Shown here: positions 6,270-44,251 of the stretch, piece by piece | Position numbering within the stretch: position 1 is the stretch's first letter | Layout of the letters: each line of letters starts with the position of its first letter | Source of the DNA: Spirochaetia bacterium | Lineage (GTDB): Bacteria; Spirochaetota; Spirochaetia; SZUA-6; Fen-1364 | Length of the DNA: 64,000 nucleotides | Assembly (NCBI GenBank): GCA_049515135.1 | Contig: JBEKUJ010000017.1 | Location: 7,332 to 71,331, forward strand | Direction: 5' to 3' | The notes under the pieces: generated by a model | What the model saw: the letters and a program-made list of their open reading frames with translations, nothing else | What the model was told of the DNA's origin: nothing | Databases searched by the model: none | Program-made: the position numbers and the translations under genes

Positions 6270-6280
6270 CTTCGCGCCTC

Positions 6281-8728: not shown

Positions 8729-8789
8729 AACCCGCAGAAAGCATTCCGACAGAGTGTTAGGCAACGGTGAAGCCAGCGTGAATTTTCTG

Positions 8790-10945: not shown

Positions 10946-11856
10946 GGCTCCTGCGCGCCGCGCGCGTTCACGTACATGGCGTACAGCGACGAATGGCCGG
11001 CGATGAAGAGCCTGTTCCGCCGCGGTCCGCCGAACGTCAGGTTCGCCACGGTCTCTGGAACCAGGATCTTTCCGAGGAGATCTCCCTGTGACGAATAGCA
11101 CAGGACGCCGTCCGCGCAGCTTATCCAGGCATTCCCGCCGGTATCTGTTCGAAAGCCGTCCGGCACACCAGGGCTGATGTCCGCAAAGACTTCTCCCCCG
11201 GAAAGTCTGCCGTTGGACACCTGGAACCTGCGCACATGATGGGGACCGCCCTCCGTGTGAGTGGCGCCCGAGTCGGCGACATACAGCAGGCGTTGATCCG
11301 GCGAAAATGCCAGCCCATTTGGCTTGTCGAAATCGTCCGCTGCAATCGTCACGCTGCCTGTTGCAGGATCCGCACGGTAGACGTTGTTGCCGTCCTGTTC
11401 CGAGTCGGCCTTCCCTCCCTCATAGTCGGAAAGGATGCCGTACGGCGGATCGGTGAACCACACCGCGCCGTCCCGGGATACCACCACATCGTTGGGTGAG
11501 TTGAGCCGCCTGCCCTCGTAGCGGTCAGCGATTGTGGTGATGCTCCCGTCCAGCTCCGTGCGGGTCACGCTCCGGCTGCCATGCTCGCAGCTCACAAGCC
11601 GCCCTGTCGTGTCGCGTGTGTTTCCATTTGCAAAGCGCGAGGGGAAGCGGAACACCGTGACGGGCCCTCCGTCCACCCATCGGAGAATTCTGTCGTTCGG
11701 AATATCGCTGAACAACAGGTACTGGCCGTCAGCGAACCAGACCGGCCCTTCAGCCCAGAGGGCACCGGTGAACAGCCTTTCCATTCTTGCGTTCGGCAGG
11801 GTGAGGTCGCGAAAACGCCTGTCGTAGATTTCCCAGTCAACCATGTTTCCCCTCAT
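10942..11856 (-). CDS. SMP-30/gluconolactonase/LRE-family protein (lactonase-like beta-propeller)
   Basis: 304 aa; motifs EGPVWFADGQYLLFSDIPNDRILRW, NSPNDVVVSRDGAVWFTDPPYG, PNGLAFSPDQRLLYVADS. First gene of the long minus-strand operon. Confidence 0.75.
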   Translation of the reverse strand: MRGNMVDWEIYDRRFRDLTLPNARMERLFTGALWAEGPVWFADGQYLLFSDIPNDRILRWVDGGPVTVFRFPSRFANGNTRDTTGRLVSCEHGSRSVTRTELDGSITTIADRYEGRRLNSPNDVVVSRDGAVWFTDPPYGILSDYEGGKADSEQDGNNVYRADPATGSVTIAADDFDKPNGLAFSPDQRLLYVADSGATHTEGGPHHVRRFQVSNGRLSGGEVFADISPGVPDGFRTDTGGNAWISCADGVLCYSSQGDLLGKILVPETVANLTFGGPRRNRLFIAGHSSLYAMYVNARGAQEP

Positions 11857-11877
11857 GAAATCCGATACACCGCTTCT

Positions 11878-11906
11878 TTACAAGTGCGGAGCCCGGTGTG
11901 TAGAAT
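11878..11906 (+). promoter_or_regulatory. Putative sigma70-like promoter for the nitroreductase gene (TTACAA-17-TAGAAT); it would give a near-leaderless mRNA
   Basis: TTACAA at 11878-11883, 17-nt spacer, TAGAAT at 11901-11906. ATG at 11916, only 9 nt after the -10, with no SD. Lies in the 59-bp divergent intergenic region shared with the phn operon. Confidence 0.3.
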
Positions 11907-11915
11907 CGCCTCACC

Positions 11916-12497
11916 ATGGAAATGTCTGATCTCGTTTCGAAGTGCCGCAGCTACCGGAGGTTCGACGCCGGCTTTGCCGTGGATGCTGCAACGCTGAGGG
12001 ACCTTGTGTCCCTAGCCAGACGGGTGCCCTCGGCGGCCAATCGGCAGCCCCTGAAATACGTCCTGTCCTGCTCTCCGGAGATGAACCTGCGGATCTTCGA
12101 AACGCTTGCGTGGGCGGCCTATCTCAAGGACTGGCCGGGGCCGGGTCCCCGGGAGCGCCCGACCGCCTATATCGTGGTCCTCCAGGACACAGACATCTCT
12201 CCGTCTGCCGAAATCGATGTCGGCATTGCGGCGCAGACCATTCTCCTGGCCGCGACCGCCCGCGGGCTTGGAGGGTGCATGTTCGGGGCCATCAAGAGAT
12301 ACCAGCTGGCGGAAAGGCTCAGGCTTCCGCCGCATCTGTCAATCGCGCTGGTCATCGCCATAGGAAAGCCCGTGGAGAAGGTGGTCCTGGAGGACATGCC
12401 GGCCGGCGGCTCCATCAAATACTACCGCGACCCGGACGGCACGCATCACGTGCCCAAGCGCGCGGAAGAAGAGCTGATCCAGGCCGTCTACGATTGA
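11916..12497 (+). CDS. Nitroreductase-family protein
   Basis: 193 aa; nitroreductase fold motifs RRSYRRF, AANRQP, GLGGCMFGA. Confidence 0.7.
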   Translation: MEMSDLVSKCRSYRRFDAGFAVDAATLRDLVSLARRVPSAANRQPLKYVLSCSPEMNLRIFETLAWAAYLKDWPGPGPRERPTAYIVVLQDTDISPSAEIDVGIAAQTILLAATARGLGGCMFGAIKRYQLAERLRLPPHLSIALVIAIGKPVEKVVLEDMPAGGSIKYYRDPDGTHHVPKRAEEELIQAVYD

Positions 12498-30439: not shown

Positions 30440-31864
30440 CTACCTGATGGGAATCTCAAGGTAGCCGGTTTTGCCTGTCACCCCGTCGCGAAGGAGGACA
30501 ACGACGCTACCCGTCTGGATGGCGTCGCCGGCATGCTGGCGGAACTGGTCCTGGTCGTTGACGTCCTCACCGTCCACCTGGAAAATGATGTCCCCCTTGT
30601 CGATCCCCGCGCTGTCGGCCGGGCTGCCAGTCACGACCTCCCTGACAACGACACCGGCGGTCTCGGTCAGACCGATGCTTTGAGCAAGGGAGGAGGAGAC
30701 AGATTCCACGCGCAGACCCAGGAGCGCGTAGCCGGGACGGGCGGCCTGCTTTTCCGCCAGAACCAGCTGGTCCGCCACCGTGAGCTTCAACCGGAGAGCC
30801 GTTCCGTTCCTGAGGAGCCCGATGGTAAGGATCGACCCGGGCGTTGATGCCGCAATCAGCCTGTTGAGCTGGGCGGCTGAGGCGACGGGCGTCTCCTGCA
30901 GGGAAGTGACGAGGTCCCCCGCTGCCACGGCCGATGCGGCGCCCGGGCCAAGGGGAAGGGCTTCAGTCACCACGACGCCGCGTGTGCCGGGCGGCAGCTT
31001 CAGGACCCGGCGGATGGATTCGGTCAGGTCCTGCACGGCGATTCCCAGGTCGCCCCGGGTCACTTTTCCCTCCCTGATGAGGGTCCCGGCAACGGCCTTC
31101 AGGAGGTTGGAAGGGATGGCGAACCCCAACCCCTCCGAGCCCTGGGTCGCAGACAGAATCAGAGCGTTCATCCCGACAACCTCGCCCCTGAGATTGAGGA
31201 GCGGGCCGCCGCTGTTGCCTGGATTTATGGCGGTGTCGGTCTGGATGAAATCCTCCAGCCCCGCGGGGGCCCGGGCGCCCACCCCCAGCCTGTGGGTGGC
31301 GCTCACAATGCCGGCCGTCACGGTCCAGTCGAGGCCTCGGGGAGAGCCGATTGCAACAACCCAGTCTCCCACCCGAAGAGTATCCGAGTCACCCAGTCTG
31401 GCCACGCGGGCCTGACCAGTCCCTTCGACCTTGAGGACTGCCACGTCGGTGAAGCGGTCGGAGCCGACCAGCCTGGCGGGACTCTCCGTGCCGTCATAGA
31501 AATGGACCGTGATGGAATCAGCATTCTCCACCACGTGGTTGTTCGTGACGATGAGCCCCTCGGGGTCGATGAGGATTCCGCTGCCCAACGCGCGCATGGG
31601 CACCTTGGAAATCCCCAGGGGAGCATCCGAGAACAGGCCCAAAGGACCCAGGCGGGGGATCTGACGAAGCGTTGTGCCGGACACGTCGATGTGAACGACG
31701 CTGGGAAGCGCAGAATCCGAAACCGCGGCGATGGCGTCCTGGAACCCCCAGACATCATGGACAACCACTCGATCCGCCGGCTGCGCCCCGCCGGACTGGC
31801 CGCTGGATGCGCACCCGTAGAGAGCCCACGCGCAGGCGGCAACAAGGATCCACCTGACTTTCAT
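30440..31864 (-). CDS. HtrA/DegP-family serine protease lipoprotein with two PDZ domains
   Basis: Lipobox in MKVRWILVAACAWALYGCASS. Trypsin-like catalytic triad regions TNNHVV, DVAVLKV, GNSGGPL; two PDZ-like segments. Confidence 0.8.
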   Translation of the reverse strand: MKVRWILVAACAWALYGCASSGQSGGAQPADRVVVHDVWGFQDAIAAVSDSALPSVVHIDVSGTTLRQIPRLGPLGLFSDAPLGISKVPMRALGSGILIDPEGLIVTNNHVVENADSITVHFYDGTESPARLVGSDRFTDVAVLKVEGTGQARVARLGDSDTLRVGDWVVAIGSPRGLDWTVTAGIVSATHRLGVGARAPAGLEDFIQTDTAINPGNSGGPLLNLRGEVVGMNALILSATQGSEGLGFAIPSNLLKAVAGTLIREGKVTRGDLGIAVQDLTESIRRVLKLPPGTRGVVVTEALPLGPGAASAVAAGDLVTSLQETPVASAAQLNRLIAASTPGSILTIGLLRNGTALRLKLTVADQLVLAEKQAARPGYALLGLRVESVSSSLAQSIGLTETAGVVVREVVTGSPADSAGIDKGDIIFQVDGEDVNDQDQFRQHAGDAIQTGSVVVLLRDGVTGKTGYLEIPIR

Positions 31865-32019
31865 TCTCACCTTCTCTGGCCTATAAGATAACGCTGTCGG
31901 CCGCGGGCGGGAAATGCGCACCGTCCGGCAGGCTGCCGGCACGGAAACCGGCGCCGGGGATAGCTTTGCTCCGGGGAACGGCCTATACTGCCGGGAGAAA
32001 CCGCGGAAAGGAGGCCGGC

Positions 32020-33234
32020 GTGGCCAGGCGCAGAGACGATCCTTCTCTGTTGAACATGATCCTGGAAAAACAGGAGAAACTCCATCACATCCGGGATCTG
32101 AACACGCTGCTGGACAATCTGCTGTATGAGACCCGCGCGCTGACCGCAGCGGATGCCGGGTCGATTTTCCTGGTAGAAGGGAAAAAGCTTCAGTTCAGCT
32201 ACGTGCAGAACGATTCGCTGTTCAAGAGCGATTTCCTTTCCAACAAATACATCTATACGAACAATGAGATCGATATCGACGAGCGGTCCATCGCCGGCTA
32301 TGTGGCGTTCACCGGCGAGTCTCTCCTGATCGACGATGCGTACGCCATCGATTCCTCCTTCCCGTTCTCCTTCAACCCCTACTTCGACCAGATTTCGTCC
32401 TACCGCACCGTCAGCATGCTCATCGTTCCCATCCGGACCAGCAAGAACGCAATGGTGGGGGTGCTGGAGCTGATCAACCGCCTCGACGTGGCCGGGACTC
32501 CCGTCCCCTTCACGGAGGATCAACGGTTCTACATCACGCAGTTCGCCTTCTATGCGGGGATCGCGATTGAGCGCGCGCGACTGCTGCGGGACGTGGTGTT
32601 CAAGATGGTGCGCACCACGGAGCTGCGCGATCCTGAGGAGACGCAGCCCCACGTCAGCCGCGTGGGCTCCTACGCGGTGGAGCTGTATCAGAAATGGGCG
32701 GAGAGGCACGCGGTAGCCCGGGATGAGGTGAATGATTTCAAGGATATCCTGAAGATCTCCTCGATGCTCCATGACATCGGCAAGGTGGGCGTATCGGATG
32801 CCATCCTGAAAAAGCGGCAGGACCTGACCCGTGAGGAGTTCGATGCCATCAAGTACCACACCGTGTACGGCGCTCAGTTCTTCGAGAACCCCACCTCTGA
32901 GTGGGACACCCTTGCCTATGAAGTGGCACTGAACCACCACGAGCGTTGGGACGGGACAGGGTACCCCGGTGTCGTGAAGGACATCCATGAGAAGATTCTG
33001 AAGTTCGGTCCGGGGAAGAAAGGCAGCAGCATCCCCCTGTCTGCACGGATCGTCACGCTTGCGGACGTCTACGACGCTCTGATCTGCAAACGGGTCTACA
33101 AGGATGCCTGGGAGGAGGACAGGGTCCTCTTCTATATCAAGGAGCAGGCGGGCAGGCAGTTCGACCCGGAGCTGGTTTCCCTTTTCTTCGAGATCTACGA
33201 CATCATACGAGCGATCAGGGAAAAGTGGGCGTAA
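32020..33234 (+). CDS. GAF domain / HD-GYP domain c-di-GMP phosphodiesterase
   Basis: HD motif HDIGKVGV and HHERWDGTGYP (HD-GYP signature). N-terminal GAF-like region. GTG 32020 preceded by GGAAAGGAGG. Confidence 0.8.
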   Translation: MARRRDDPSLLNMILEKQEKLHHIRDLNTLLDNLLYETRALTAADAGSIFLVEGKKLQFSYVQNDSLFKSDFLSNKYIYTNNEIDIDERSIAGYVAFTGESLLIDDAYAIDSSFPFSFNPYFDQISSYRTVSMLIVPIRTSKNAMVGVLELINRLDVAGTPVPFTEDQRFYITQFAFYAGIAIERARLLRDVVFKMVRTTELRDPEETQPHVSRVGSYAVELYQKWAERHAVARDEVNDFKDILKISSMLHDIGKVGVSDAILKKRQDLTREEFDAIKYHTVYGAQFFENPTSEWDTLAYEVALNHHERWDGTGYPGVVKDIHEKILKFGPGKKGSSIPLSARIVTLADVYDALICKRVYKDAWEEDRVLFYIKEQAGRQFDPELVSLFFEIYDIIRAIREKWA

Positions 33235-33251
33235 CACGGCCGAAGGCCGTG

Positions 33252-34502
33252 CTAGAATTGCTCCACGAGGTTTTGTTTCGCCGTTGCCTTGTCCAGATAG
33301 TCCGCGGCCTGTTCGTAGCTGACGTCGATCGATACGATGGTCCGGAGAAGGTCGATTGCGCCTTTGAAGTCCTCGTTCCTGTAATCGTTGACCGCTGCGG
33401 CATACATCTGAGGCAGGTATGAGCGCACCTTCTGCCTGCGGGTGTCCAGCTGATCAAGACCGGCCTGGTCCACCGTTCTCTTAGCAAGGGCCTCGATCCT
33501 GGTGCTTGCCGCAGCCAGATCCCCCCCGTCGATCAGGCTGTCGATCTGCTGGATGGACGCATCGAAGGAAGTCTGCTGCTCCTCCTGGGCGGCGAGGTCC
33601 GCGATCTTCTTTTTCAGCGCCAGGGCCTCGTCCGTCTCCGAGAGCCTGAGAGCCTCGTCGACCTTGTCCTCCGCCAGTACATACGCCTTGTGCGAGTACA
33701 GGCTGCGAGCCCACCGGTAGTCAAGGGAATAGCGTGCCGCGGCCACCCGGGCATCCAAGATCCCTCCCACCTTCCTGCTTGCCGCAGCGATCTGCGCAAT
33801 CTGGTCACGCGCGTTTTCGAACTGGCCGGCGACAACGAGCTTGTTGACGCCGGCAAGCTGCGAGGCGGCAATCTGGTCCAGCGCAGTCTTCAGGGATTTC
33901 GTCTGGCCGGTGGCGGTCGAGTTCTGCGGATCCAGCAGGATGACCTTGCCGAAGCTCTGATAGGCGTCGATGTCCGCGTTTTCCCTGTCCGTGATCTGGG
34001 CCGCCTGGGCGGCCTTTGCAAGGGACGTCCAGGCCTTTGACAGATACTGCGCAATGAGCGTCTGGCGCGTGGTCTCCGTGTCCCGGGCCAGCCGCGCAGC
34101 GGAGGCATTCGAGGGGTCAAGGCGGCTGGCAGTCTGGACGGCCGCGCACATGGCGTAGTTTTCCTCCTCGCTCCTTCTCTGGCGCGCGAAGTAGGATTGG
34201 GCTTCTTTCAGGGCCTGGGACACCTGGGCTGACCGGAAATTATCCACGAGATCGCGATACCGGGCGGCAAGGAGGTTCTGCGGGTCGTAGCGAAGCGCCA
34301 TGGTGAAATACTCCCGCACCGAGGCCACCTTGCTCAGGTCTCCCTTCCTGATCAGCTGAGACTGGTACTGGATCACCCCCTGGTCCACGAGGGCCCTGGC
34401 CTTTGCCTGGGCGTCGAGATTCGAGAGCAAGAAACTGTCCTGGGCTGATGCGCAGCCGAAGACAGCCAGCGCGGCGAGGGCGGCGATGCATTTGAACCGC
34501 AT
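33252..34502 (-). CDS. Alpha-helical lipoprotein (coiled-coil/TPR-like), hypothetical
   Basis: Start ATG 34502 (MRFKCIAALAALAVFGCASAQD, lipobox). The ORF-track N-terminal 155 aa (Arg/Pro-rich) are rejected. Confidence 0.5.
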   Translation of the reverse strand: MRFKCIAALAALAVFGCASAQDSFLLSNLDAQAKARALVDQGVIQYQSQLIRKGDLSKVASVREYFTMALRYDPQNLLAARYRDLVDNFRSAQVSQALKEAQSYFARQRRSEEENYAMCAAVQTASRLDPSNASAARLARDTETTRQTLIAQYLSKAWTSLAKAAQAAQITDRENADIDAYQSFGKVILLDPQNSTATGQTKSLKTALDQIAASQLAGVNKLVVAGQFENARDQIAQIAAASRKVGGILDARVAAARYSLDYRWARSLYSHKAYVLAEDKVDEALRLSETDEALALKKKIADLAAQEEQQTSFDASIQQIDSLIDGGDLAAASTRIEALAKRTVDQAGLDQLDTRRQKVRSYLPQMYAAAVNDYRNEDFKGAIDLLRTIVSIDVSYEQAADYLDKATAKQNLVEQF

Positions 34503-34510
34503 GTCTTTCT

Positions 34511-34849
34511 CTACGACCTTTTTCTCTTGCCCCGGCTGATTTTCCCTGCAGGGGATTGCCGAGTTCCAATCCGGGCCCCGGGGATCACCCCGGCAGCCAT
34601 GTCGCGCGGCGGGAACGGCAGGGGGCCGGCAGCGCGGGCATCCGCAATGAAAGCCGCGTTGCAGATCCTGCCGACGCGGTCCACCACTTCTCGAACGATC
34701 AGGAGCTCGACGAAGTTGCGATCCACTCCCTGCTTCAGGGTTTCGGCGTCCAGCTTTCTTGCAATGCTCCCCGCGGCGTCGAGCTGTTGGAAGGCGCGGC
34801 CAAGCGCTCCTTCCGCTCGTCTCATCAGTTGTTCGATGCGTTTTGTCAT
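34511..34849 (-). CDS. Small hypothetical protein (about 112 aa), helical
   Basis: ATG 34849 (MTKRIEQLMRRAEGALGRAFQQLD...). Its stop lies 9 nt before the lipoprotein start. Low confidence. Confidence 0.3.
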   Translation of the reverse strand: MTKRIEQLMRRAEGALGRAFQQLDAAGSIARKLDAETLKQGVDRNFVELLIVREVVDRVGRICNAAFIADARAAGPLPFPPRDMAAGVIPGARIGTRQSPAGKISRGKRKRS

Positions 34850-35089
34850 TTGCCGCCCAGGCTCTTTCCTGCACAGCATACCTCTTTTTGAGAGACCACA
34901 GCAAGTCTGCGCGGGCAGGCTTCGCGGAATATTTTTGCCTTGCCGCCGTTGTCTGCATATCTTTCACGTGTCAGATACGTGCACGGCACGGCACGTGCCT
35001 GTGCTGCAGGTGAGAATAGTTGCAAGGGCGTCGGGAAAGGGCTTTTCAACCGACTGTTGATGGGCTGCTCAGCGCGATGGAGAAAGGAG

Positions 35090-35257
35090 TTCCTTGGGCA
35101 CGCATTCGAGGGCGTTGACCGAAATGGACGTGCAGCCCGGGTCTGCCTCTCCGCGGACGCACGCGGCTCCGAGATCGTCTCCGCCATCATCGCCATGAGC
35201 CGCAGCCTGAATCTCGACGTGAGACCCCCAATGAGGCGGAGGTCGAGGGGAGTATGA
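35090..35257 (+). pseudogene. EAL-domain (c-di-GMP phosphodiesterase) C-terminal remnant
   Basis: Translation ...VDRNGRAARVCLSADARGSEIVSAIIAMSRSLNLDV matches the conserved EAL segment (..IDRSFV...D..AIVRAIIAMAHSLGLKV), then stops after 10 more residues. The upstream region is too short for a full EAL domain. Its TGA overlaps the kinase ATG (ATGA). Confidence 0.35.
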
Positions 35258-35742
35258 GTCCGGAGCTCGAGCTTCGCGTGGCGTCTGATTGGAACGAGGT
35301 CGGCAGAGTCAATCAGGCGGTGAGCGAGTTCCTGAGCGGCTGCGGGCTGCCGGCCGAGGGCGTCGACAAATACACCATGGTCGCCTGCGAGCTCGTGGAG
35401 AACGGGATCAAGTACGGGCATTTCAGCGGGGAAAAGGACGTCGTCAACGTGCGGGTGTGGATCGCCGGCGGCACGATCTCTGTCCTGGTCTCGAACCCGA
35501 TCGGCAATTACTCCCGGACGTACCTGAGCGAGCTCGACCGCACAATCCAGTGGGTTCGCGGGTTCCAGGCCCCGTTCGAGGCGTACATTGCGAGGATGAA
35601 GGCGATCTCCCGCGAGCCCCTTGAAACCGACAAGAGCGGCCTCGGCCTCGTTCGGATAACGTACGAGGGCCGGGCGATGCTCGATTTCTACCTGGACGAA
35701 AACGACACGCTCAGCGTCTCAGCGGTCTCGACGCTGGAGTAA
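35254..35742 (+). CDS. GHKL-type anti-sigma-factor-like Ser/Thr kinase (RsbW/SiaB-like)
   Basis: N-box-like ACELVENGIKYGH and G2-like GLGLVRI in a single small HATPase_c domain of 162 aa. RBS GAGGGGAG. Confidence 0.7.
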   Translation: MSPELELRVASDWNEVGRVNQAVSEFLSGCGLPAEGVDKYTMVACELVENGIKYGHFSGEKDVVNVRVWIAGGTISVLVSNPIGNYSRTYLSELDRTIQWVRGFQAPFEAYIARMKAISREPLETDKSGLGLVRITYEGRAMLDFYLDENDTLSVSAVSTLE

Positions 35743-35758
35743 ACTCCGGAGGAGCACA

Positions 35759-36133
35759 ATGGCGAAAGCACAGACGTTCACGAACAATCAGCTGACCATC
35801 GACGTGGCGGACGAAGAGCGCACAATCACGGTCCACTTCCTCGGCAAGAGCATCCTGCGGGACCCCAATGATTTCGTCATGCCCATTCTCCTGCGGACCC
35901 TTGGGGAAGCCATACCGGCCAGGAAGCGGATCGTGATGAACTTCCGTGACCTCTCCTATATGAACTCCTCGACGCTGACGCCGGTGATCAAGATCCTGGA
36001 AAGAGCGCGGGTGGGCGAAGGCCAGATCACCGTGGAGTACCGCAAGTCCCTGAAATGGCAGGATATTTCCTTCTCCGCGCTGGTCATTTTCCAGACCCCC
36101 GATGGCAGGATCGTCATCGAAGGCACGGATTGA
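35759..36133 (+). CDS. DUF1987 (SiaC-like) partner-switch phosphoprotein
   Basis: 124 aa. Motifs ITVHFLGKSILRDPNDFVMPIL and LSYMNSSTL match the SiaC/DUF1987 pattern (F.G.S.PE..F..P; L.YFNSSS) as recalled from memory. Lies between a GHKL kinase and a PP2C phosphatase. Confidence 0.55.
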   Translation: MAKAQTFTNNQLTIDVADEERTITVHFLGKSILRDPNDFVMPILLRTLGEAIPARKRIVMNFRDLSYMNSSTLTPVIKILERARVGEGQITVEYRKSLKWQDISFSALVIFQTPDGRIVIEGTD

Positions 36134-36139
36134 ACTGTC

Positions 36140-37534
36140 ATGACGCCGCAACCCCCCGTCCTTCAAGGCTGGCTCACAGCGGGAAGAATGAGGATCACGG
36201 TGCAGGCAGCCTACGCTTCACGCTACTCCGTCTGGGTGGAAGGCAATGGTGAGCAGCTCGGCCCTGAGATAGAGAACCTCGAAATCTCCCTCAACGACAA
36301 GCTCATCCAGATCGGGGCCTGCCGCGTGCTCCCGGGGAAGAACGGGGAGCACGCACGGCGGCTTGTCGCCGTGGGAAAGACCCATGATTTCGAGAAGCTT
36401 TTCTTCCATTCAAAAGTGGAAACCCTGGAATCTGCCGGGGTCAACCTGGCGCTCATCTTCGGCTACAAGAACAGCATCGATCCTGCCTTCCGCAACTTCG
36501 TCTCAGACCTGACCTACGACCTGAACGTCTATCTCAACGTCCTGGACCAGATGGACGCAGACTGCGCGAACGAGCCTCCCGATGTGCGGGAGGTCATCCA
36601 GCAGAGCATCATCAGCAGCGTGGGAAGGGAACTGCGAGACTACATGGAGAAGCAGAACGCGCAGCTGGACCGCGTGGTCAGCGGCTTCAGCGAGAAAGAG
36701 CATGAGCATCACGGGTTCTATTTCCGGCGGCAGCTCTGGAATATCCTGCTTCGCGCCCCCATCATGGCGCGCACCAACCTCAAGCCGCGGGGATACAACG
36801 GGGACTCGGAGATGATGCGCATGATCTACCTGGACACCTACCAGGGAGACTCGACGTTCGGGAAGGTCATGCACAAGTTTTCGGTGGACCAGCAGGCCGC
36901 GCAGGCCGTGCGAAACAGGCGGCATGAAGTGGCCGGGATGCTCCACCGCTTCATTGAAAAGTCCCCCCTGCCCGAGTCGCAGAAGCTGCGGGTCCTCTCC
37001 GTGGCGTGCGGGCCGGCCTTCGAGGTGAGGGACATCCTGCGGACCCCGCAGGACTGCGCGCGGATGCACTTCTCCCTCTTCGACCAGGACCAGCAGGCCC
37101 TGCTGGAGGCGGCGGGGCTTGTGAGCGACATTGAGAGCGCCCTGCACACGGAGATTTCAGCGGATTTCATCCGTGAGTCGGTGCGGACAATGCTTGTCAC
37201 CCGGGCTCTCCAGGAGAGATGGGGGCAATTCCATTTCATCTATTCAATGGGGCTGTTCGACTACCTCACTGCCCCGGTTGCAACGGCCGTCCTCAGGAAG
37301 CTCTACCAGCTTCTGACCCCGGGCGGGGAGATGGCAATCGGCAACTTCTACGTCGTGAACCCCAGTCGTTTCTACATGGAGTACTGGCACGACTGGAAGA
37401 TCATATACCGCACGGAGGACGACTTCACCCGGCTGGTGGACAACCTGCCGGGCGCCGAGGTCTCCGTGGAATACGACGCGACACGGATCCAGATGATGCT
37501 TCACGTCAGGAAGGCGAGCAATGCCGAAGGCTGA
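36140..37534 (+). CDS. Two-domain protein: N-terminal about 280-aa domain of unknown function fused to a C-terminal class I SAM-dependent methyltransferase
   Basis: C-terminal motif I LRVLSVACGPAFE, post-I acidic region, and IYSMGLFDYL...LTPGGEMAIGNF. The N-terminal part (RMRITVQAAYASRYSVWVEG..EISLNDKLIQIG) is unassigned and possibly PilZ-like. Confidence 0.6.
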   Translation: MTPQPPVLQGWLTAGRMRITVQAAYASRYSVWVEGNGEQLGPEIENLEISLNDKLIQIGACRVLPGKNGEHARRLVAVGKTHDFEKLFFHSKVETLESAGVNLALIFGYKNSIDPAFRNFVSDLTYDLNVYLNVLDQMDADCANEPPDVREVIQQSIISSVGRELRDYMEKQNAQLDRVVSGFSEKEHEHHGFYFRRQLWNILLRAPIMARTNLKPRGYNGDSEMMRMIYLDTYQGDSTFGKVMHKFSVDQQAAQAVRNRRHEVAGMLHRFIEKSPLPESQKLRVLSVACGPAFEVRDILRTPQDCARMHFSLFDQDQQALLEAAGLVSDIESALHTEISADFIRESVRTMLVTRALQERWGQFHFIYSMGLFDYLTAPVATAVLRKLYQLLTPGGEMAIGNFYVVNPSRFYMEYWHDWKIIYRTEDDFTRLVDNLPGAEVSVEYDATRIQMMLHVRKASNAEG

Positions 37535-38960
37535 GCGCACAGGCCCGTCCACCTCCTCGGGACGCAGACGGGACCAGATGGACGCATGGACCTCCCGGGC
37601 CATTGATGCGAACGACTTCGCCGAATATCGCAACGGGATCATGCACGACTGGCTGCGCACGCTCACGCCCCTGGCGGTGGTCCTGGTTCCCATTTTCTTC
37701 ATCCTCGATTACTTCATGATGCCCTCCGGCCTGCTCCCCCGCTTCGCCGTCTACAGGCTCATCTCCACCGCGCTGGCCCTGGCGCAGTTCCTGATTGTGC
37801 GAAACACGCCGCCCAGCCGATGGTCCTACCTGCATGGCTATTTCATTTCCCTGCAGGTCGGTGGGATCATCGCCCTCATGACGGTGGACCTCGGAGGGTT
37901 CAACTCCACCTATTACGCGGGGCTGATCCTGGTGATCATCGGCGTCAATCTCCTGATGCCCTGGCGCGCAACGCACACTGCCGTCAACGCCATCGCCATC
38001 ATGGCCGCGTACATAGCCTTCAACATGATCGCCGGCAAGCCCTTCGACCAGGCAAAGCTGACGAACAACCTCTTCTTCCTGGCATCCACTGCGGTCCTGG
38101 CCGTGAGCATCAACCACGTCCGCTACAACCTGATCGAGAAGGAGTTCTCCCTCCTTGTGAAGCTGAAAAAGGCCCGTGACGCGCTCTGGGGGGAGATGGA
38201 GCTTGCCAAGAGGATCCAGACCGCACTCCTCCCGCAAAGGAAAGGCGGCATTCGGGGCTTCGAGAGCGCCGTCACCTTGCTGCCGGCAAAGGAAGTGGGA
38301 GGAGACTACTACGACATCATAGAGACGGATTCCGGGGACAGGTGGGTGGCAATCGGGGATGTGGCCGGCCATGGCGTGGATTCCGGCCTGATCATGATGA
38401 TGGCGCAGGCAAGCGTCATGACTGTCATCAAGGGCAACCCGGCCGCCAAGCCACTCGACGTGCTGTCCACCACCAACAGCGTCATCAAGGAGGATATCGG
38501 CCGGCTGGGCTCCAACCACTACATGACCATGATGGTGGTCAAGCTGGAAGACAGCTGCATGATGGTTGCAGGTCACCATCAGGACGTGCTGGTGTACAGA
38601 TCTTCCCTGGGCTCGGTGACGGCCATTCCCACGAAGGGGACCTGGCTTGGCATCACGGACCAGATCGAGTCATTCATGGAAGTCAAGACCATCGATATCG
38701 ATGACAATGACGTTGCGCTCTTTTTCACGGACGGAGTCACCGAAGGCACCAACAGCTCCGGGGAGATGTACGGCCAGGAGCGCCTGCAGCGGGTGTTCGC
38801 GCAAAGCGCCGACCTTCCGGTGGAAAAGACGCTGGAGCGGATCCTCGATGACGTGCGGGCCTTCCAGGCCGACCAGGAGGACGACATGACCCTGATCCTG
38901 CTGAAAAAGATACCGCAGGAGACCGGCAAGAAGACGGCGCATGAGGGAGGCGGCGCATGA
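37521..38960 (+). CDS. Membrane-anchored (multi-TM) PP2C/SpoIIE-type Ser/Thr phosphatase (SiaA/RsbU-like)
   Basis: At least six hydrophobic helices, then SpoIIE/PP2C motifs (LPAKEVGGDYYDI, AIGDVAGHGVDSGLIM, FFTDGVTE). RBS AGGAAGG before ATG 37521. Overlaps the previous gene by 14 nt. Confidence 0.75.
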   Translation: MPKAERTGPSTSSGRRRDQMDAWTSRAIDANDFAEYRNGIMHDWLRTLTPLAVVLVPIFFILDYFMMPSGLLPRFAVYRLISTALALAQFLIVRNTPPSRWSYLHGYFISLQVGGIIALMTVDLGGFNSTYYAGLILVIIGVNLLMPWRATHTAVNAIAIMAAYIAFNMIAGKPFDQAKLTNNLFFLASTAVLAVSINHVRYNLIEKEFSLLVKLKKARDALWGEMELAKRIQTALLPQRKGGIRGFESAVTLLPAKEVGGDYYDIIETDSGDRWVAIGDVAGHGVDSGLIMMMAQASVMTVIKGNPAAKPLDVLSTTNSVIKEDIGRLGSNHYMTMMVVKLEDSCMMVAGHHQDVLVYRSSLGSVTAIPTKGTWLGITDQIESFMEVKTIDIDDNDVALFFTDGVTEGTNSSGEMYGQERLQRVFAQSADLPVEKTLERILDDVRAFQADQEDDMTLILLKKIPQETGKKTAHEGGGA

Positions 38961-39337
38961 GACCCATGAGGGAGGAACGCACGCATCTCATCTATCGGCT
39001 GCGCGTGTTCGACGCGAAGAGCGGCAAGCTGCTGGGGCACATGACGGACATTACTCCAGAAGGCATGATGCTCATCGGTGAAAAGGCCGTGAAGCCGAAG
39101 AAGGAGTTCTCCCTCCGCATGGACCTCCCCCGCAACGTTATGGAGGACAGACACCTGACCTTCGCTGCCGTGAGCAAGTGGTGCCGCAAGGACGCAAGCG
39201 GAGACTACTACAGCATGGGCTTCCAGATTCAGTCCATAAGCCCTGAGGGCCTGGCCGTGGTCCGCACTCTCATCCGCGACTTCTTCCGGGAGGAGCTGGA
39301 GGGAGACTCCGTCACTGACCTGAACCCGGTGCTGTGA
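38957..39337 (+). CDS. PilZ-domain protein (putative c-di-GMP receptor)
   Basis: 126 aa. N-terminal R-rich REERTHLIYRLRV and D.(S/T)..G element DITPEGMML. ATGA overlap with the phosphatase stop. Confidence 0.5.
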   Translation: MRPMREERTHLIYRLRVFDAKSGKLLGHMTDITPEGMMLIGEKAVKPKKEFSLRMDLPRNVMEDRHLTFAAVSKWCRKDASGDYYSMGFQIQSISPEGLAVVRTLIRDFFREELEGDSVTDLNPVL

Positions 39338-39380: not shown

Positions 39381-40334
39381 TCACTCCCTGGGATAGCGGT
39401 ACTCGTTCCCGTCCGGGCCGAGCAGGACATACGCGTCCTGTTCAGTGCGCACAAGGGACGACTCCACCGGGGCTTTTCCGCCTCCCCCGGGAAGATCGAC
39501 AGCATACGTGGGGATGGCGATGCCCGAAAGTCGGGACCGGAGCTCTTTCATCAGTGCGATGCCTTTCTCCAGGGGAACTCGAAAATGCGCCGTGCCTGAG
39601 GCAAGGTCGCCCTGAAAAAGGTAGTACGGCTTGACTCCCGCCCTCACCAGACCGCGAAAGAGCGCCTCCAGGGTGACAGCGTCGTCATTGACGCTGCGCA
39701 GGAGCACGGCCTGGTTCAACACCGGCACCCCCGCCGTGATGAGCCTGCGAACGGCCTGACGGAACTCATCCGTGAGCTCCCGCGGATGGTTGGCATGGAT
39801 CACGGCCCACACGACGCCCGGTTTTCCCAGCATGCCGGCAAGGTCAGCGGTGATTCGCGCAGGATGGACCACGGGGATCCGCGTGCACACGCGGAGAATG
39901 TACGAGGGATCGACCTGCAGGAGGCGGTGGATGATGCGCTCCAGGTCCTGGTCTGACAGCATCAGCGGGTCCCCGCCCGAAAGCAGGACCTCGTGCACCG
40001 ATGGATTGCGAGCCAGGTAGCCGCAGGCAGCTTCGAGCTGCTCAGGGGTGATCTGGCCGCCGCCGTGGCCCGTGAAGTGCCTGCGGAAGCAGTGCCGGCA
40101 GTACGTAGCGCACCGGTCGCTCACCAGGAGCAGGGCCCGGTCCGCGTAATGATGGATGAGCCTGTCGGTGACCAGATAGCGGGAATCTCCGATGGGATCC
40201 GGGGACTCATAAGGGAGGGTTGTCTGCTCCGCGTCGCGGGGAACGTACTGGGCGGCAATGGGGTCCTTGTCGGGATCCTTCGAACGGGCAAGTCCTGCAT
40301 AGTAGCGGCTGACGCCGAAGGGAAGGCGGGTCAC
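39381..40334 (-). CDS. KamA-family radical SAM protein (lysine 2,3-aminomutase / EpmB-like)
   Basis: CATYCRHCFRRHF (C...C..C) and KamA-family flanking motifs. 317 aa, i.e. the short EpmB-like length. Confidence 0.75.
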   Translation of the reverse strand: MTRLPFGVSRYYAGLARSKDPDKDPIAAQYVPRDAEQTTLPYESPDPIGDSRYLVTDRLIHHYADRALLLVSDRCATYCRHCFRRHFTGHGGGQITPEQLEAACGYLARNPSVHEVLLSGGDPLMLSDQDLERIIHRLLQVDPSYILRVCTRIPVVHPARITADLAGMLGKPGVVWAVIHANHPRELTDEFRQAVRRLITAGVPVLNQAVLLRSVNDDAVTLEALFRGLVRAGVKPYYLFQGDLASGTAHFRVPLEKGIALMKELRSRLSGIAIPTYAVDLPGGGGKAPVESSLVRTEQDAYVLLGPDGNEYRYPRE

Positions 40335-40358
40335 GGGCTCAGGATAGGAAATATCGAC

Positions 40359-40832
40359 CTACAGTTCAATCTTCCTGGTCAGGTATTCCGTGTAATCCCG
40401 TCTGATGGGCTCATACGGCGCTTCCATGAGCTGGGACGAGATGAGGAAGTCCGCGGTGGAGCGGTTGCAGGCGGCCGGAATGTTGTACAGCACCGAAATG
40501 CGAAGCAGCGCCTTCACATCGACGTCATGGGGCTGCGGCTCCATGGGGTCCCAGAAAAAGATCAGCACATCGATCTTTCCGTCCACGATCATTGCGCCCA
40601 GCTGCTGGTCCCCCCCGAACGGCCCGGACTTCAGCTTGATAATGGTGGGCCCCTGCTCCGAGGTGCCGCGCGTGCGGCTGGAGAGCGTTTCCTCCACCAG
40701 CCTCCCGGTGGTCCCCGTGCAGATCAGCTGGTGGCCGAGGAGCAGCTTCCAGTTCCAGTTCACCCATTCGACGAGGTCTTTCTTGCAGTTGTCGTGCGCG
40801 ACAAGCGCAATGTTTTTGCTTGTCTCCATCAC
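40359..40832 (-). CDS. mgsA: Methylglyoxal synthase
   Basis: IALVAHDNCKKDL, ICTGTTG, GPFGGDQQLGAMI, LIFFWDPMEPQPHDVDVKALLR are classic MgsA motifs. Confidence 0.85.
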   Translation of the reverse strand: MMETSKNIALVAHDNCKKDLVEWVNWNWKLLLGHQLICTGTTGRLVEETLSSRTRGTSEQGPTIIKLKSGPFGGDQQLGAMIVDGKIDVLIFFWDPMEPQPHDVDVKALLRISVLYNIPAACNRSTADFLISSQLMEAPYEPIRRDYTEYLTRKIEL

Positions 40833-41236
40833 CGCAGCCCATGCTCATTGAAGCATGCCTGGTAGCGCTTGTCGGTCCCCATGATGTGGTTCTGCAGCCA
40901 CCCCCTGAGGAAGTTCAGGATCTCAATGGTGAGAATGAAGCTGGCCCGGTCCGCTCTTGCCTGCAGCTCGAGGGCCTTTGCGGTGAACTTCTGGTGCTCC
41001 AGCCTGTGGGCCTCGTAGCCCTTGTAGCTGAATGCCTGCATGTAGCGCTCGTCTGTGGCAAAGTGGGTCGCCGCGTAGCCCACCATTGCGTCTATCGTTG
41101 CCTTCTGCGCCTCCCTCCCCTTGCGCGCAAGCATGGCTTCGTTCAGGGAGTTGATCATTTCAATGAGCTTGCGATGCTCGTCATCGATTTTACGCACGTT
41201 CACGCTCAGCTCTGTGGACCATTCGAAATATGCCAT
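40829..41236 (-). CDS. Hemerythrin-like metal-binding (bacteriohemerythrin) protein
   Basis: 135 aa. N-terminal FEWSTELSVNVRKIDDEHRKLIEMIN and His/Glu ligand pattern (HF..DE, H..EH, H). Confidence 0.75.
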   Translation of the reverse strand: MAYFEWSTELSVNVRKIDDEHRKLIEMINSLNEAMLARKGREAQKATIDAMVGYAATHFATDERYMQAFSYKGYEAHRLEHQKFTAKALELQARADRASFILTIEILNFLRGWLQNHIMGTDKRYQACFNEHGLR

Positions 41237-41263
41237 GGACTGTTTCCCTCCGCCCCTGGTATA

Positions 41264-44251
41264 TCACGCGGTCCGATTTAGCGCGAGGCTCCACGCGGTA
41301 AATTTCCTATTGAGATTTTTCAAGGTCAGCCCTGTCGTGTCCTCAAGGAGCCAGTGAGCGTCTTGAAGGCCGGCGCCGATCCCCACGGCGAACATGCGCG
41401 CATCGATGATCGCCTGAATCCCTGCCTGGGAGTCCTCGATGCCCGAGCAGTTTTCGAAAGGCACACCCAGACTCTCCGCGGCTCGGAAGAAGATCTCTGG
41501 ATCGGGCTTTCCCTTGACCACGGCCGCAGGGTCCACGACGTGGTCCACCACTCCTTCGATGCCCAGCCGGCGCACCACCTCCCACACGTTGTGGCTGACC
41601 GATGCGACGGCCATCTTGATGCCTGCTTCCTTGAGACGGGCAAAAAGGTCCCCCATCCCCGGCAGCAGGTCTCCCGGCGTGACCCCGCCGATGAGCTCCC
41701 GGTAATATCCGTTTTTTCTTTCGGCAAGCCTCAGCTTCTCCGCGGGCGGGAAGCTGGCCCCCGACTCTGTCAGGATGATCTCCAGGCTCTCGTTCCTGCT
41801 CACGCCCTTCAGCCGCTCGTTGACCTTCCTGTCGAAGCTGATCCCCAGCTCGTTGCAGAGGCGCTTCCAGGCGCGGAAGTGCAGCTCTGCCGTGGAAGCG
41901 AGGACCCCGTCCAGGTCGAAGATGACGCATTCGAGGGCGGGAGCAAGGGTGCATGAGACCGCGGACCCCCGCGACACCACGATCTCCCTGCCTCGATGGA
42001 CAACCGCCAGCGGATCGCCATCCAGCACGTCGTAGGCCGCTTTCTCATGAGTGATGGTTATCGCAAGGGACCTCCCTTTGTACTGGAGCCTGAAAGCAAG
42101 GCTTTTCCAGCGCGAAGGGAGCCGCGGGGAGAAGGAGAGCGCGCCAACCCTGTCGCGCATGCCTGCAAAGCCATAGAGGAGCGATATCCAGGTCCCCGCC
42201 ATGGCCGCCATGTGCACGCCGTCTGCGACGTTTCCGTTCACGTCGTCCAGGTCCATGCGCGCCGTGCGCGAGAAATATCGGTATGCCTCTTCGGTATAGC
42301 CCAGCTCCGCCGCGGCCACACTCTGGATGCACGGGGACAGCGACGAGTCCCCCGTTGTCAGCCTGTTGTAGTAGTCGAAGTTGCGCTTCTTGTCCGCGGC
42401 GGAAAACTTCTCACCCAACAGGACCTGTGCCAGGACGACATCGGGCTGCTTCAGGACCTGGAAGCGGTAGATGACCAGCGGATGATAATGGAGCAGAAGG
42501 GGGTAGTTTTCCCGGGGAGTATTCTGCAAATCCCAGCGCGCGCGGGTGAGGAAAAGGTCGTCCTGCGCATGGATGCCTTTGTCGCGATTGTAGGGGATGC
42601 GCATCCGCCGCGCGGCTTCCTTCCAGCCCTGCACTTCCTCGGGAAGCAGGGAAAGGGTGGAAGCGATCCGGCGGTACTGTTCGGGTGAGCGTGCGGCCAG
42701 CTCGTCGGAGAGGTCTGCAGCGAACAGGAGGTGCTCCTGCGCCATGAGGTTCGTGTAGAGGTTGTTGTTCACAAGGGCGCTGTACTCGTCGGGGCCCGTC
42801 ACCTCGTTGATGCAGAAATCTCCGTTCATCTCCGGGATGAAATCCCCCAGGTCCGCCCACAGACGGGCGGTCTCGAAAACCATCTCGGCTCCCCCTTCCA
42901 GGAGGATGGCGCGATCACCCGTGGCGTCCACGTATTTCTTCAGGGCGTACACGATGTCGGCATTGATGTGGTACTGAGCGGTGCCGGCGGGATAATAGGG
43001 TGATGTCTCCTCGCCTCCTATGGTCCGCCACGGGTAGAGCGCGCCCCTCTGGCTCATCTCGGCGGCGCGGGTCCTTGCCTTGTCCAGGAGCCGTATCCTG
43101 TACTGCGCCAGTGAGCGGGCAATGTCAGGAGAGGTGTAGACAAAGAAGGGGAGCACGTAGATCTCGGTGTCCCAGAAGTAGTGCCCTTCGTAGCCCTCGC
43201 CGCTCAACCCCTTTGCCGCAACGCTTGTGCGGCCGTCCCGTCCGGCTGACTGGAGGAGGCTCCATATATTGAAGCGCAGCCCCTGCTGCAGGCTGTCGTC
43301 TCCTTCGATTCGCACGTCAGCCCGCTCCCAGAACGACTTGAGGTAGCCTGCCTGCTCCGCGCAGAGCGTCTCGAATCCGGCCCGCATGGCTTTGTCCACC
43401 GCGTCAGCCGCCCGGCCCTGAGCCTCGGAAGCAGGGCATTCCAGCGATGTGCAGTACCCGATGTACTTGACGAGGCGGACGGACTGTCCGCCGCGCCGCG
43501 CGGCATCGACGCGCAGGGTGGCGCTCTCGGCACCCATGTCCATACGCTCTTTGCCGCCCCCCGAAGCCAGGTCGTGATCGACTACGCAGGCAAGGGTGAG
43601 CTTCGTATTCCTGGTCTGCTGGACCAGCGCGGCGCGTCGCCCCGTGCCCTCCACGTGGATGGTCTGGAGCGGCCTCTCGTGAAAGTGAGCCCCCACCCGC
43701 GGGTCTGCGCCAGCCGCCTGGTTGGAAACGCCTCCGTCGACAGCCGACTCCAGCCGAGCGGCGCCCTCGAAACTGGCAATGACGTACTCGATTGCCGCGA
43801 CATGCCGGCGGGTGAGGGAGACGAGCCTGCGGACAGTGAGATCGATTCGGCGCCCTGCCGGGGATCTCCAGCTGAGGGTCCGAACCAGGACGCCCTCCCT
43901 CAGGTCCAGGCGGCGTTCATAGGACAGCAGCCAACCCGAGGAGAGATCCAGCGGCTCGTCGTCCACGAAGAGGCGGATGACCTTTGCGTCCGCAACGTTC
44001 AGCATGACCTGCCGGTTCCTGGCATACCCGTAGGCTGTCTCGCCGTACACGATGGGGGTCTCTTCGAAAAAACCGTTGATGTACGTTCCCGTGACCCCGA
44101 CGCACCGGCCCTCCTCCAGGTTCCCGCGCATGCCGAGATGGCCGTTGCCCAGCGCGAAGATCGTCTCATTGCGCGCCGCCAGGGAAGGATCGAATGAGGT
44201 CTCCCGTATCTTCCATGCGTCTGACGGATAAATCTCCTTCCGGACCGCCAT
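41264..44251 (-). CDS. Glycoside hydrolase family 65 disaccharide phosphorylase fused to a C-terminal beta-phosphoglucomutase (HAD) domain
   Basis: 995 aa. GH65 N-terminus (ETSFDPSLAARNETIFALGNGHLGMRGNLEEG). C-terminal beta-PGM (CVIFDLDGVLASTAELHFRAWKRL...LKGVSRNESL... VGIG). Confidence 0.8.
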   Translation of the reverse strand: MAVRKEIYPSDAWKIRETSFDPSLAARNETIFALGNGHLGMRGNLEEGRCVGVTGTYINGFFEETPIVYGETAYGYARNRQVMLNVADAKVIRLFVDDEPLDLSSGWLLSYERRLDLREGVLVRTLSWRSPAGRRIDLTVRRLVSLTRRHVAAIEYVIASFEGAARLESAVDGGVSNQAAGADPRVGAHFHERPLQTIHVEGTGRRAALVQQTRNTKLTLACVVDHDLASGGGKERMDMGAESATLRVDAARRGGQSVRLVKYIGYCTSLECPASEAQGRAADAVDKAMRAGFETLCAEQAGYLKSFWERADVRIEGDDSLQQGLRFNIWSLLQSAGRDGRTSVAAKGLSGEGYEGHYFWDTEIYVLPFFVYTSPDIARSLAQYRIRLLDKARTRAAEMSQRGALYPWRTIGGEETSPYYPAGTAQYHINADIVYALKKYVDATGDRAILLEGGAEMVFETARLWADLGDFIPEMNGDFCINEVTGPDEYSALVNNNLYTNLMAQEHLLFAADLSDELAARSPEQYRRIASTLSLLPEEVQGWKEAARRMRIPYNRDKGIHAQDDLFLTRARWDLQNTPRENYPLLLHYHPLVIYRFQVLKQPDVVLAQVLLGEKFSAADKKRNFDYYNRLTTGDSSLSPCIQSVAAAELGYTEEAYRYFSRTARMDLDDVNGNVADGVHMAAMAGTWISLLYGFAGMRDRVGALSFSPRLPSRWKSLAFRLQYKGRSLAITITHEKAAYDVLDGDPLAVVHRGREIVVSRGSAVSCTLAPALECVIFDLDGVLASTAELHFRAWKRLCNELGISFDRKVNERLKGVSRNESLEIILTESGASFPPAEKLRLAERKNGYYRELIGGVTPGDLLPGMGDLFARLKEAGIKMAVASVSHNVWEVVRRLGIEGVVDHVVDPAAVVKGKPDPEIFFRAAESLGVPFENCSGIEDSQAGIQAIIDARMFAVGIGAGLQDAHWLLEDTTGLTLKNLNRKFTAWSLALNRTA

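Follow-up and report, generated by a model that had tools for sequence, protein, structure and literature searches.

Gene content of the locus

The locus described here belongs to a Spirochaetia bacterium and lies in a window of 64,000 nucleotides, the whole stretch of DNA that was analysed (GenBank assembly GCA_049515135.1, contig JBEKUJ010000017.1, positions 7,332 to 71,331). Its core is a cassette of four consecutive genes that appears to join a relative of the quorum-sensing signal synthase PhcB to a partner switch. The cassette encodes a single-domain SpoIIAB-like GHKL protein (162 aa; 35254-35742), a STAS/SiaC-like putative phosphoprotein, hereafter the STAS protein (124 aa; 35759-36133), an S-adenosylmethionine (SAM)-dependent methyltransferase assigned by profile comparison to the PhcB family (464 aa; 36140-37534), and a membrane phosphatase with predicted MASE8 and PP2C domains (479 aa; 37521-38960). 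A gene for a stand-alone PilZ protein follows (126 aa; 38957-39337). All five genes, and the domains described below, are on the plus strand.

The genes named in a preliminary description of this DNA are real: all of the open reading frames (ORFs) are present and intact at the coordinates given here, as judged from the ORF list and from Pfam and NCBIfam scans. The GHKL protein matches HATPase_c_2 (29.7 bits, gathering threshold 27.4), the STAS protein matches a STAS profile and, weakly, the Pfam SiaC family (E 0.0014), the methyltransferase has weak class I methyltransferase matches, the phosphatase matches SpoIIE (2e-33), and the PilZ protein matches Pfam PilZ (25.0 bits, gathering threshold 22.5). 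The five genes had been described as chained by overlaps, which holds for two junctions, methyltransferase/phosphatase (14 bp) and phosphatase/PilZ (4 bp), and does not hold for the other two, where gaps of 16 bp (GHKL/STAS) and 6 bp (STAS/methyltransferase) are present. No promoter-like site was found inside the block from the GHKL gene to the PilZ gene. Compared with the related loci L001 and L003, all five genes are full length and have ratios of nonsynonymous to synonymous substitution rates (dN/dS) of 0.02-0.11. The five remaining genes of the locus are under purifying selection, and a decaying pseudo-operon was rejected on the same grounds.

Conservation of the four-gene cassette

Relatives were sampled at one genome per species, which yielded 80 loci (numbered with the prefix L), 72 of them with enough flanking DNA. 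Gene order was derived from tblastn searches with the window proteins and from ORF clustering; counts of neighbouring genes given below rest on domain-level re-annotation or Pfam-tested examples only. The order GHKL, STAS, methyltransferase, phosphatase is identical in 63 of the 72 loci. The linkage of the methyltransferase gene to this unit is thereby borne out in related genomes: in these 63 loci it lies between the STAS and phosphatase genes, and no promoter of its own was seen.

The cassette was found in Spirochaetota, Leptospirales, Desulfobacterota, Gammaproteobacteria, Calditrichota, Fidelibacterota, SAR324 and Bacteroidota, and spans at least eight phyla. The gammaproteobacterial carriers are Saccharospirillum, Natronospirillum, Aquisalimonas and Ectothiorhodospiraceae; a Nitrospirales contig, itself truncated, carries the GHKL, STAS and methyltransferase genes. 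Homologues of the methyltransferase of about equal length number more than 1,600. The identities of the four proteins to their window counterparts co-vary across loci (r 0.90-0.96; 0.36-0.74 after removal of the four closest relatives), and the spacing between the STAS and methyltransferase genes, 6 bp in the window, is tens of base pairs or less in the other loci. This arrangement is far beyond chance. Since the order is conserved across phyla and the linkage to the STAS gene is tight, the methyltransferase has to be counted as integral to the unit.

Several loci depart from the standard composition. A variant cassette in uncultured Desulfobacterota (L050, L067, L069 and L076, at about 7900-12400 in each) consists of the methyltransferase, a protein like the cassette GHKL protein and a MASE8-histidine kinase-REC protein; the methyltransferase and the GHKL gene are present, and there is neither a STAS nor a phosphatase gene. 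The variant thus links the GHKL protein to the pair of methyltransferase and MASE8 protein, and suggests that it can work with this pair on its own. One locus (L005) has the STAS, methyltransferase and PilZ genes and no GHKL gene, and another (L052) has the methyltransferase and PilZ genes. The gene contexts of plasmid-borne methyltransferase homologues in Pseudanabaena and Rhizobium were uninformative.

Similarity of the methyltransferase to PhcB

In the AlphaFold2 model of the methyltransferase (predicted local distance difference test score, pLDDT, 89.5) three parts can be distinguished: a PilZ-fold N-terminal domain (aa 1-82; 36140-36385), modelled as a six-stranded beta-barrel over aa 7-77, a helical lid (aa 84-274; 36389-36961) and a class I methyltransferase core (aa 283-457; 36986-37510). 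The protein had been described as a fusion of an N-domain of no known kind to a SAM methyltransferase domain. The C-terminal assignment stands; an orphan fusion it is not, given the PhcB-family similarity described below and the PilZ fold of the N-domain in the model, the latter being an assignment by fold only. The c-di-GMP-binding motifs RxxxR and (D/N)xSxxG have no counterpart in the consensus of N-domain family alignments, in which only S30, G59 and C61 are invariant, and comparison with hhalign detected no profile similarity between this domain and the family of the window PilZ protein.

The relationship to PhcB was assessed against a reference set of PhcB-type methyltransferases, defined as those whose genes immediately precede one for a PhcS-type MASE8 kinase. 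The methyltransferase family aligns with this PhcB-type family with an hhalign probability of 100% (E 3e-39) over 394 columns, residues 41-456 on 47-460. The same conserved residue occurs in both families in 45 columns, including those of the motifs RTxxKPxGYxGDxxM, CGPAxE and GLFDY. The reference methyltransferases are encoded in phcBSRQ-type operons of Cupriavidus, Massilia, Janthinobacterium, Pseudoduganella and Paraburkholderia. In the first four genera each gene is followed by one for a MASE8-HisKA-HATPase protein; in three of these four operons a REC-histidine kinase and a REC protein come next, as in the phcBSRQ layout, and Janthinobacterium has only the REC protein. On a Paraburkholderia plasmid, the gene for a 468-aa methyltransferase homologue precedes those for a histidine kinase and two response regulators, and Arg22 of this homologue matches Ralstonia PhcB (PMC6989110). 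The N-terminal 185 aa of the methyltransferase family gave no significant alignment with the N-terminus of this PhcB-like protein, for which the target was a single sequence. In the JGI annotation the PhcB KEGG name is attached both to many of the methyltransferase homologues and to the PhcB-type reference family. From these profile comparisons the methyltransferase belongs to a distant subfamily of PhcB and is related to it over its full length. The product of PhcB is the quorum-sensing signal methyl 3-hydroxymyristate or methyl 3-hydroxypalmitate, for which PhcS is the sensor (PMC8578825, PMC6989110).

A direct sequence search of the methyltransferase against the PDB returned noise only (E >0.2), and there is no NCBIfam match, hence no curated name. 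Most of its best structural neighbours are methyltransferases that act on small molecules or natural products, which speaks against a protein methyltransferase that modifies a switch component or a receptor in the manner of CheR-like adaptation. Weak precomputed CheR (PF01739) matches on a few homologues, the annotation of one plasmid homologue as CheR, and the CheX and CheY-like neighbours at Leptospirales loci would all fit such a role. The CheR matches, however, are marginal, as is usual for similarity at the general class I level, and the homology to PhcB, a small-molecule methyl-ester synthase, extends over the full length. We therefore regard a CheR-like function as highly improbable.

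A MASE8 domain in the membrane phosphatase

The phosphatase has about four hydrophobic segments and a multi-pass membrane domain at its N-terminus, followed by a SpoIIE/PPM catalytic domain (aa 272-462; 38334-38906), whose motifs GGDYYD, GDVAGHG, FTDGVTE and DDMT are all found in the translation. The precomputed Pfam annotation of an identical protein lists PF20968:MASE8 and SpoIIE, and MASE8 is also annotated on Desulfobacterales relatives. A profile of the membrane domain aligns with the MASE8 of PhcS with an hhalign probability of 97.1% (E 6.8e-11; reversed control E 0.59). A local Pfam scan missed MASE8 even in the positive control, Cupriavidus PhcS, and its negative result was discarded. 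By two independent kinds of profile match, the window phosphatase thus carries MASE8, the PhcS-type sensor domain, at about aa 30-215 (37608-38165).

The next gene downstream of the phosphatase gene in Desulfobacterota, Calditrichota and Fidelibacterota encodes a PAS histidine kinase, or, in L034 and L070, a PAS-GGDEF-EAL protein. Kinase and cyclase versions share 52-64% identity in their N-terminal membrane domain of about 265 aa, which aligns with the membrane domain of the phosphatase (hhalign probability 99%, E 7.6e-18; reversed control 0.21). Precomputed Pfam annotation gives one such downstream kinase in Desulfobacterota as MASE8-PAS-HisKA-HATPase-REC-Hpt; at that locus the MASE8 match on the phosphatase is weak. 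Two receptors for one signal would explain the second MASE8 protein in Desulfobacterota.

The predicted partner switch

The region 35759-36133 had been taken for a DUF1987 protein. The score against SiaC/DUF1987 (PF09345) is 18.7 bits, below the gathering threshold of 24.5, and precomputed PF09345 matches are found on many homologues. The broader assignment to STAS-like partner-switch families holds: the family profile matches the anti-sigma antagonist TM1442 (E 2.5e-5) and also SpoIIAA, and no SiaC chain was among its PDB matches. The invariant motif YMNSSTLTP aligns with YMDSAGL of TM1442 and FMDSSGL of SpoIIAA, and because these contain the phosphorylated serine, Ser70 (codon 35966-35968) is the predicted phospho-acceptor of the STAS protein.

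The family profile of the GHKL protein aligns with residues 1-81 of SpoIIAB (E 0.005), and the similarity ends at residue 81. An N-box, ELxENxxKYG, is conserved, SGLGL is similar to a G2 box, and NPxD/G stands in the place of the G1 box DxGxG. The protein probably serves the switch as serine kinase or anti-factor. The ATP site has unusual motifs, and as there is no canonical G1 box, kinase activity is not assured. Taken together, the HATPase_c_2, STAS and SpoIIE matches support a partner-switch-type trio of the GHKL protein, the STAS protein and the phosphatase, in agreement with the preliminary description.

Partner switches control sigma factors, secretion and diguanylate cyclases. Close parallels are SpoIIAB/SpoIIAA/SpoIIE and RsbW/RsbV/RsbU, with which the cassette shares the alignment of the GHKL protein to the N-terminal half of SpoIIAB, a serine in the DSSG-equivalent motif of the STAS protein, and a SpoIIE-family PPM phosphatase. 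In contrast to these systems, the G1 box is non-canonical, the constant fourth member is a methyltransferase, and no sigma-factor gene was found among the recurrent neighbours of the cassette, which are GGDEF/EAL, histidine kinase, REC, CheX, PilZ and HD-GYP genes; a target encoded elsewhere in the genome is conceivable.

SiaABCD of Pseudomonas aeruginosa likewise has a membrane PP2C phosphatase, a small GHKL kinase and a STAS-fold phosphoprotein beside an enzyme that they may control, and relatives of the cassette have a GGDEF-containing gene in the operon. The systems differ in that the window STAS protein falls below the SiaC gathering score and is closer to the classical anti-sigma antagonists, and in that the phosphatase, which has MASE8, matches SiaA in the PP2C domain only (61.7 bits against the SiaA-type NCBIfam equivalog NF038263, cut-off 700). 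The GGDEF partner of the relatives is a PAS-GGDEF-EAL protein, not a SiaD-like one, and none is present in the window, while a PhcB-family methyltransferase, constant in the cassette, has no equivalent in Sia.

A further resemblance is to slr1658 and slr1659 of Synechocystis, which are consecutively numbered. The GHKL protein matches the slr1658 superfamily (1.5e-7) and the STAS protein the slr1659 superfamily (7.6e-7), both below threshold, and DUF6272 matches were found in 8 of 19 homologues of the GHKL protein; the scores, 31 and 29 bits, are nevertheless far from the family cut-off of 100. As a regulator, slr1658 is known only genetically (PMC7555055).

Loss of a PAS-GGDEF-EAL gene and other c-di-GMP-related neighbours

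The preliminary description had placed the methyltransferase in the position of SiaD, the diguanylate cyclase of the Sia system, since the window has no GGDEF gene. In the closest relatives (L001, L002 and L004) an intact PAS-GGDEF-EAL gene lies between a lipoprotein-like gene and the GHKL gene; in L001 it is a 797-aa ORF at 4702-7095 (EAL 1e-72, GGDEF 2e-53). The window is colinear with L001 on both sides of it, 31951-35141 with L001 1506-4715 and 35228-39500 with L001 7089-11330. Between these blocks, 72 bp of the window (35151-35222) are 94% identical to L001 6878-6949, which corresponds to codons about 725-749 of the PAS-GGDEF-EAL gene. Relative to L001, about 2.16 kb and a further ~140 bp are lost from the window. 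The degraded EAL fragment noted earlier is therefore real, as a remnant of the deleted gene; it amounts to only 72 bp, and the ORF that encloses it (34940-35257) is spurious and no gene.

An assembly artefact as the cause of the missing gene was rejected, since L089 and L090, which were assembled independently, show the identical deletion structure. That the window has no GGDEF gene is thus due to a recent local deletion and not to the design of the system. In 18 of the 80 loci the cassette is immediately preceded by the PAS-GGDEF-EAL gene, whose GGDEF and E(A/V)L motifs are intact and which often overlaps the start of the GHKL gene by 4 bp (L009, L029, L074). Because relatives keep this gene upstream and it was lost locally here, the methyltransferase does not replace SiaD. 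In L003, whose methyltransferase is 85% identical, the PAS-GGDEF-EAL gene has been lost at other breakpoints, without an EAL remnant (L003:6833-7121 versus window 34888-35262), which indicates recurrent loss or further erosion.

Two other c-di-GMP-related genes are found at the window locus. A gene about 2 kb upstream of the cassette encodes GAF and HD-GYP domains (32056-33234, plus strand; Pfam HD_5 4e-21, GAF 6e-12), with HD and HHERWDGTGYP motifs in the translation. Its position is kept in L001-L004 and its dN/dS is 0.04-0.05. We consider it a predicted c-di-GMP phosphodiesterase and a peripheral neighbour. The PilZ gene is a lineage-specific fifth gene, found in 14 of the 72 loci, in Spirochaetota and in Saccharospirillum/Natronospirillum, with dN/dS of 0.07-0.09. 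The motifs of its family are RxxxR and (D/N)x(S/T/N)xxG, the second of which reads DITPEG in the window. Proteins of the window clade have Met for the first Arg of RxxxR, while distant orthologues keep Arg; the change is common to L001 and L004, which retain the GGDEF-EAL gene.

The tie of the locus to c-di-GMP noted in the preliminary description recurs in other lineages in other forms. In Spirochaetota and Gammaproteobacteria the neighbours are the PAS-GGDEF-EAL and PilZ genes. In Desulfobacterota a MASE8-PAS histidine kinase is followed either by a REC-HD_5 response regulator (L093:10944-15172), probably an HD-GYP protein resembling RpfG, or by a REC-GGDEF gene and a weak PilZ-like gene (L030:10825-14277). 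A MASE8-PAS histidine kinase downstream of the cassette was also observed in L033, L042, L048 and L022. By their domain content, the downstream MASE8 kinases and REC proteins would link the same sensor domain to c-di-GMP turnover by two-component signalling. In Leptospirales the neighbours are an Hpt/HATPase kinase, CheX and a single REC protein. Across Leptospirales and some Spirochaetota (L012, L062, L065, L066, L071, L073, L078, L079) a histidine-kinase-type gene, a CheX phosphatase and a single-domain receiver flank the cassette; among these flanking kinases the domain scan covered L065 (PAS_8, Hpt, HATPase_c). Such flanks would represent a chemotaxis-like output in place of c-di-GMP enzymes.

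These neighbours could mean that the cassette is a Sia-like circuit with a c-di-GMP enzyme as its true output, the methyltransferase serving as an accessory, for instance in tuning or adaptation, and the window circuit being a partly disabled relic. The directly upstream position of the PAS-GGDEF-EAL gene in the 18 loci, its intact motifs and frequent 4-bp overlap with the GHKL gene, the PilZ gene downstream in the same lineages, and the REC-GGDEF and PilZ-like or REC-HD_5 genes downstream in Desulfobacterota are in line with this, as is the deletion in the window. However, the c-di-GMP partner differs between loci in type and position and is not always present, while the methyltransferase is constant; many loci have no adjacent GGDEF, EAL or histidine kinase gene (for example L011, L015, L017, L018 and L028); and in the two lineages that lost the GGDEF-EAL gene, with breakpoints that differ, the five genes are intact and have the low dN/dS given above. 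We think it quite unlikely that the output is a c-di-GMP enzyme, which would be PAS-GGDEF-EAL in Spirochaetota and Gammaproteobacteria and, elsewhere, REC-GGDEF or REC-HD-GYP proteins fed by a kinase. The methyltransferase is the only constant candidate for the binding partner of the switch, and the c-di-GMP enzymes are lineage-specific candidates.

Proposed mechanism

The two profile similarities described above bring the cassette close to the Phc system of Ralstonia and Cupriavidus. The methyltransferases belong to the same family over nearly the full length and are of similar size (463-468 aa versus 464 aa), the MASE8 sensor family is encoded next to the synthase in both, and Desulfobacterota relatives of the cassette even have a MASE8 histidine kinase directly downstream. 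In other respects the systems differ. The MASE8 domain of the cassette is fused to a PP2C phosphatase and that of PhcS to a histidine kinase; the window locus lacks PhcR, PhcQ and any histidine kinase or REC gene; SpoIIAB-like and STAS genes precede the synthase gene; the identity of the methyltransferase to PhcB-type proteins is 24-27%; and the hosts are Spirochaetota, Desulfobacterota and others in place of Burkholderiales. It is because two otherwise different systems, phcBS and the cassette, pair the same synthase and sensor families that we read the pair as synthase and sensor. Likewise, since the phosphatase carries the sensor domain of PhcS, the product of the methyltransferase is likely to be an input of the switch, and not only the methyltransferase its output. 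On balance we favour the view that the cassette is a Phc-like pair of signal synthase and receptor whose output goes to a partner switch rather than to a two-component phosphorelay.

The synthase and receptor pair might operate as follows. The methyltransferase would produce a small, hydrophobic, methylated molecule, which, if PhcB is a guide, would be a methyl ester of the fatty-acid type. The MASE8 domain of the phosphatase would perceive this product in the membrane, and the phosphatase activity would change; a downstream MASE8 kinase or cyclase, where present, would perceive the same molecule. The balance between the phosphatase and the kinase-like protein would set the phosphorylation of Ser70 of the STAS protein, and the pair of STAS and GHKL proteins would bind or release a partner. 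The likeliest partner is the methyltransferase, possibly contacted through its degenerate PilZ-fold N-domain, and such binding would exert post-translational feedback on signal synthesis. The switch may plausibly gate the methyltransferase in this way. An adjacent c-di-GMP enzyme may be a further partner in lineages that have one.

Several observations weigh against this scheme. At the identity to PhcB-type proteins noted above, the substrate may differ. The N-domain of the methyltransferase has no detectable similarity to the PhcB N-terminus before residue 41, and its PilZ fold is without the c-di-GMP motifs. The Saccharospirillum phosphatase has no precomputed MASE8 match, and the role of MASE8 as the ligand-binding site of PhcS is, in the literature, deduced from genetics. 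In the GHKL protein, the replacement of the G1 box counts in the same direction. The partner of the switch is ambiguous as well, as L005 has the STAS protein, methyltransferase and PilZ protein without the GHKL protein, and the Desulfobacterota variants (L050, L067, L069, L076) have the methyltransferase and GHKL protein without the STAS protein.

The preliminary description had suggested a switch that gates a methylation activity. On that view the cassette would be a Sia-type switch in which the methyltransferase is the sole output and acts on a target unrelated to the sensor. The phosphatase would then sense an unrelated cue from the membrane or the environment, and the phosphorylation state of the STAS protein would set its binding to, or activation of, the methyltransferase. 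The tight and probably translational coupling of the STAS and methyltransferase genes agrees with this, as do the embedding of the methyltransferase gene between the STAS and phosphatase genes in most loci, the persistence of the cassette under purifying selection without a GGDEF gene in the window and in L003, and the Sia precedent, in which a DUF1987 protein controls the adjacent enzyme (PMC8457831). It leaves unexplained, however, the PhcB-family identity of the enzyme, the PhcS-type MASE8 on the phosphatase and the second MASE8 receptor in Desulfobacterota, and the pairing of synthase and sensor families in two different systems is hard to credit to coincidence. An output-only methyltransferase therefore seems unlikely to us.

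Starting from the favoured synthase and receptor pair, we speculate more tentatively that the cassette could represent a widespread, largely post-translational form of autoinduction, with a methyl-ester signal, a MASE8-PP2C receptor, and a STAS/GHKL switch that gates both the synthase and c-di-GMP enzymes. This wider proposal is possible rather than probable.

To our knowledge, Phc-type signalling by 3-hydroxy fatty-acid methyl esters has been studied almost only in Ralstonia and its relatives and is known only from Burkholderiales. In open-access papers and preprints we found no description of the cassette, of a MASE8-PP2C protein, or of PhcB homologues outside Burkholderiales. The parts all come from known families, and it is their combination and its breadth that are new: a putative PhcB-family synthase and a predicted PhcS-type sensor domain are joined to a serine-phosphorylation switch in hundreds to thousands of environmental genomes. 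If the proposal is correct, methyl-ester signalling of the Phc type would reach Spirochaetota, Desulfobacterota, Calditrichota, Fidelibacterota, SAR324 and several Gammaproteobacteria, and a large unexplored class of lipid-like signals would exist in anaerobic and sediment bacteria. The cassette would be the first partner switch to respond to a diffusible signal made by the cell itself and to control that signal as well, and a compact four-protein system for partner-switch feedback on signal synthesis; MASE8 would gain a testable ligand class. The comparison with relatives also corrects a tempting misreading of the window, in which the absence of a GGDEF gene is taken for design.

Other genes near the cassette

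Two minus-strand ORFs lie between the HD-GYP gene and the cassette. The first (33252-34502) encodes a 416-aa lipoprotein-like protein, whose signal peptide ends in a Cys lipobox, and the second (34511-34849) is a 112-aa ORF. Neither has a Pfam or NCBIfam match, and both are kept in L001-L004; a 25%-identical relative of the lipoprotein-like protein is positioned after the cassette in L008.

The flanks on either side (39381-44251 and 30440-31942, both minus strand) have an ordinary housekeeping appearance, are syntenic in L001-L004, and lie outside the signalling unit. The former contains genes for a KamA-like radical-SAM aminomutase, a methylglyoxal synthase-like protein and a GH65 phosphorylase fused to a HAD phosphatase domain, as well as a small ORF (40829-41236) taken from its sequence to be hemerythrin-like. 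The latter encodes an HtrA-like protease with PDZ domains.

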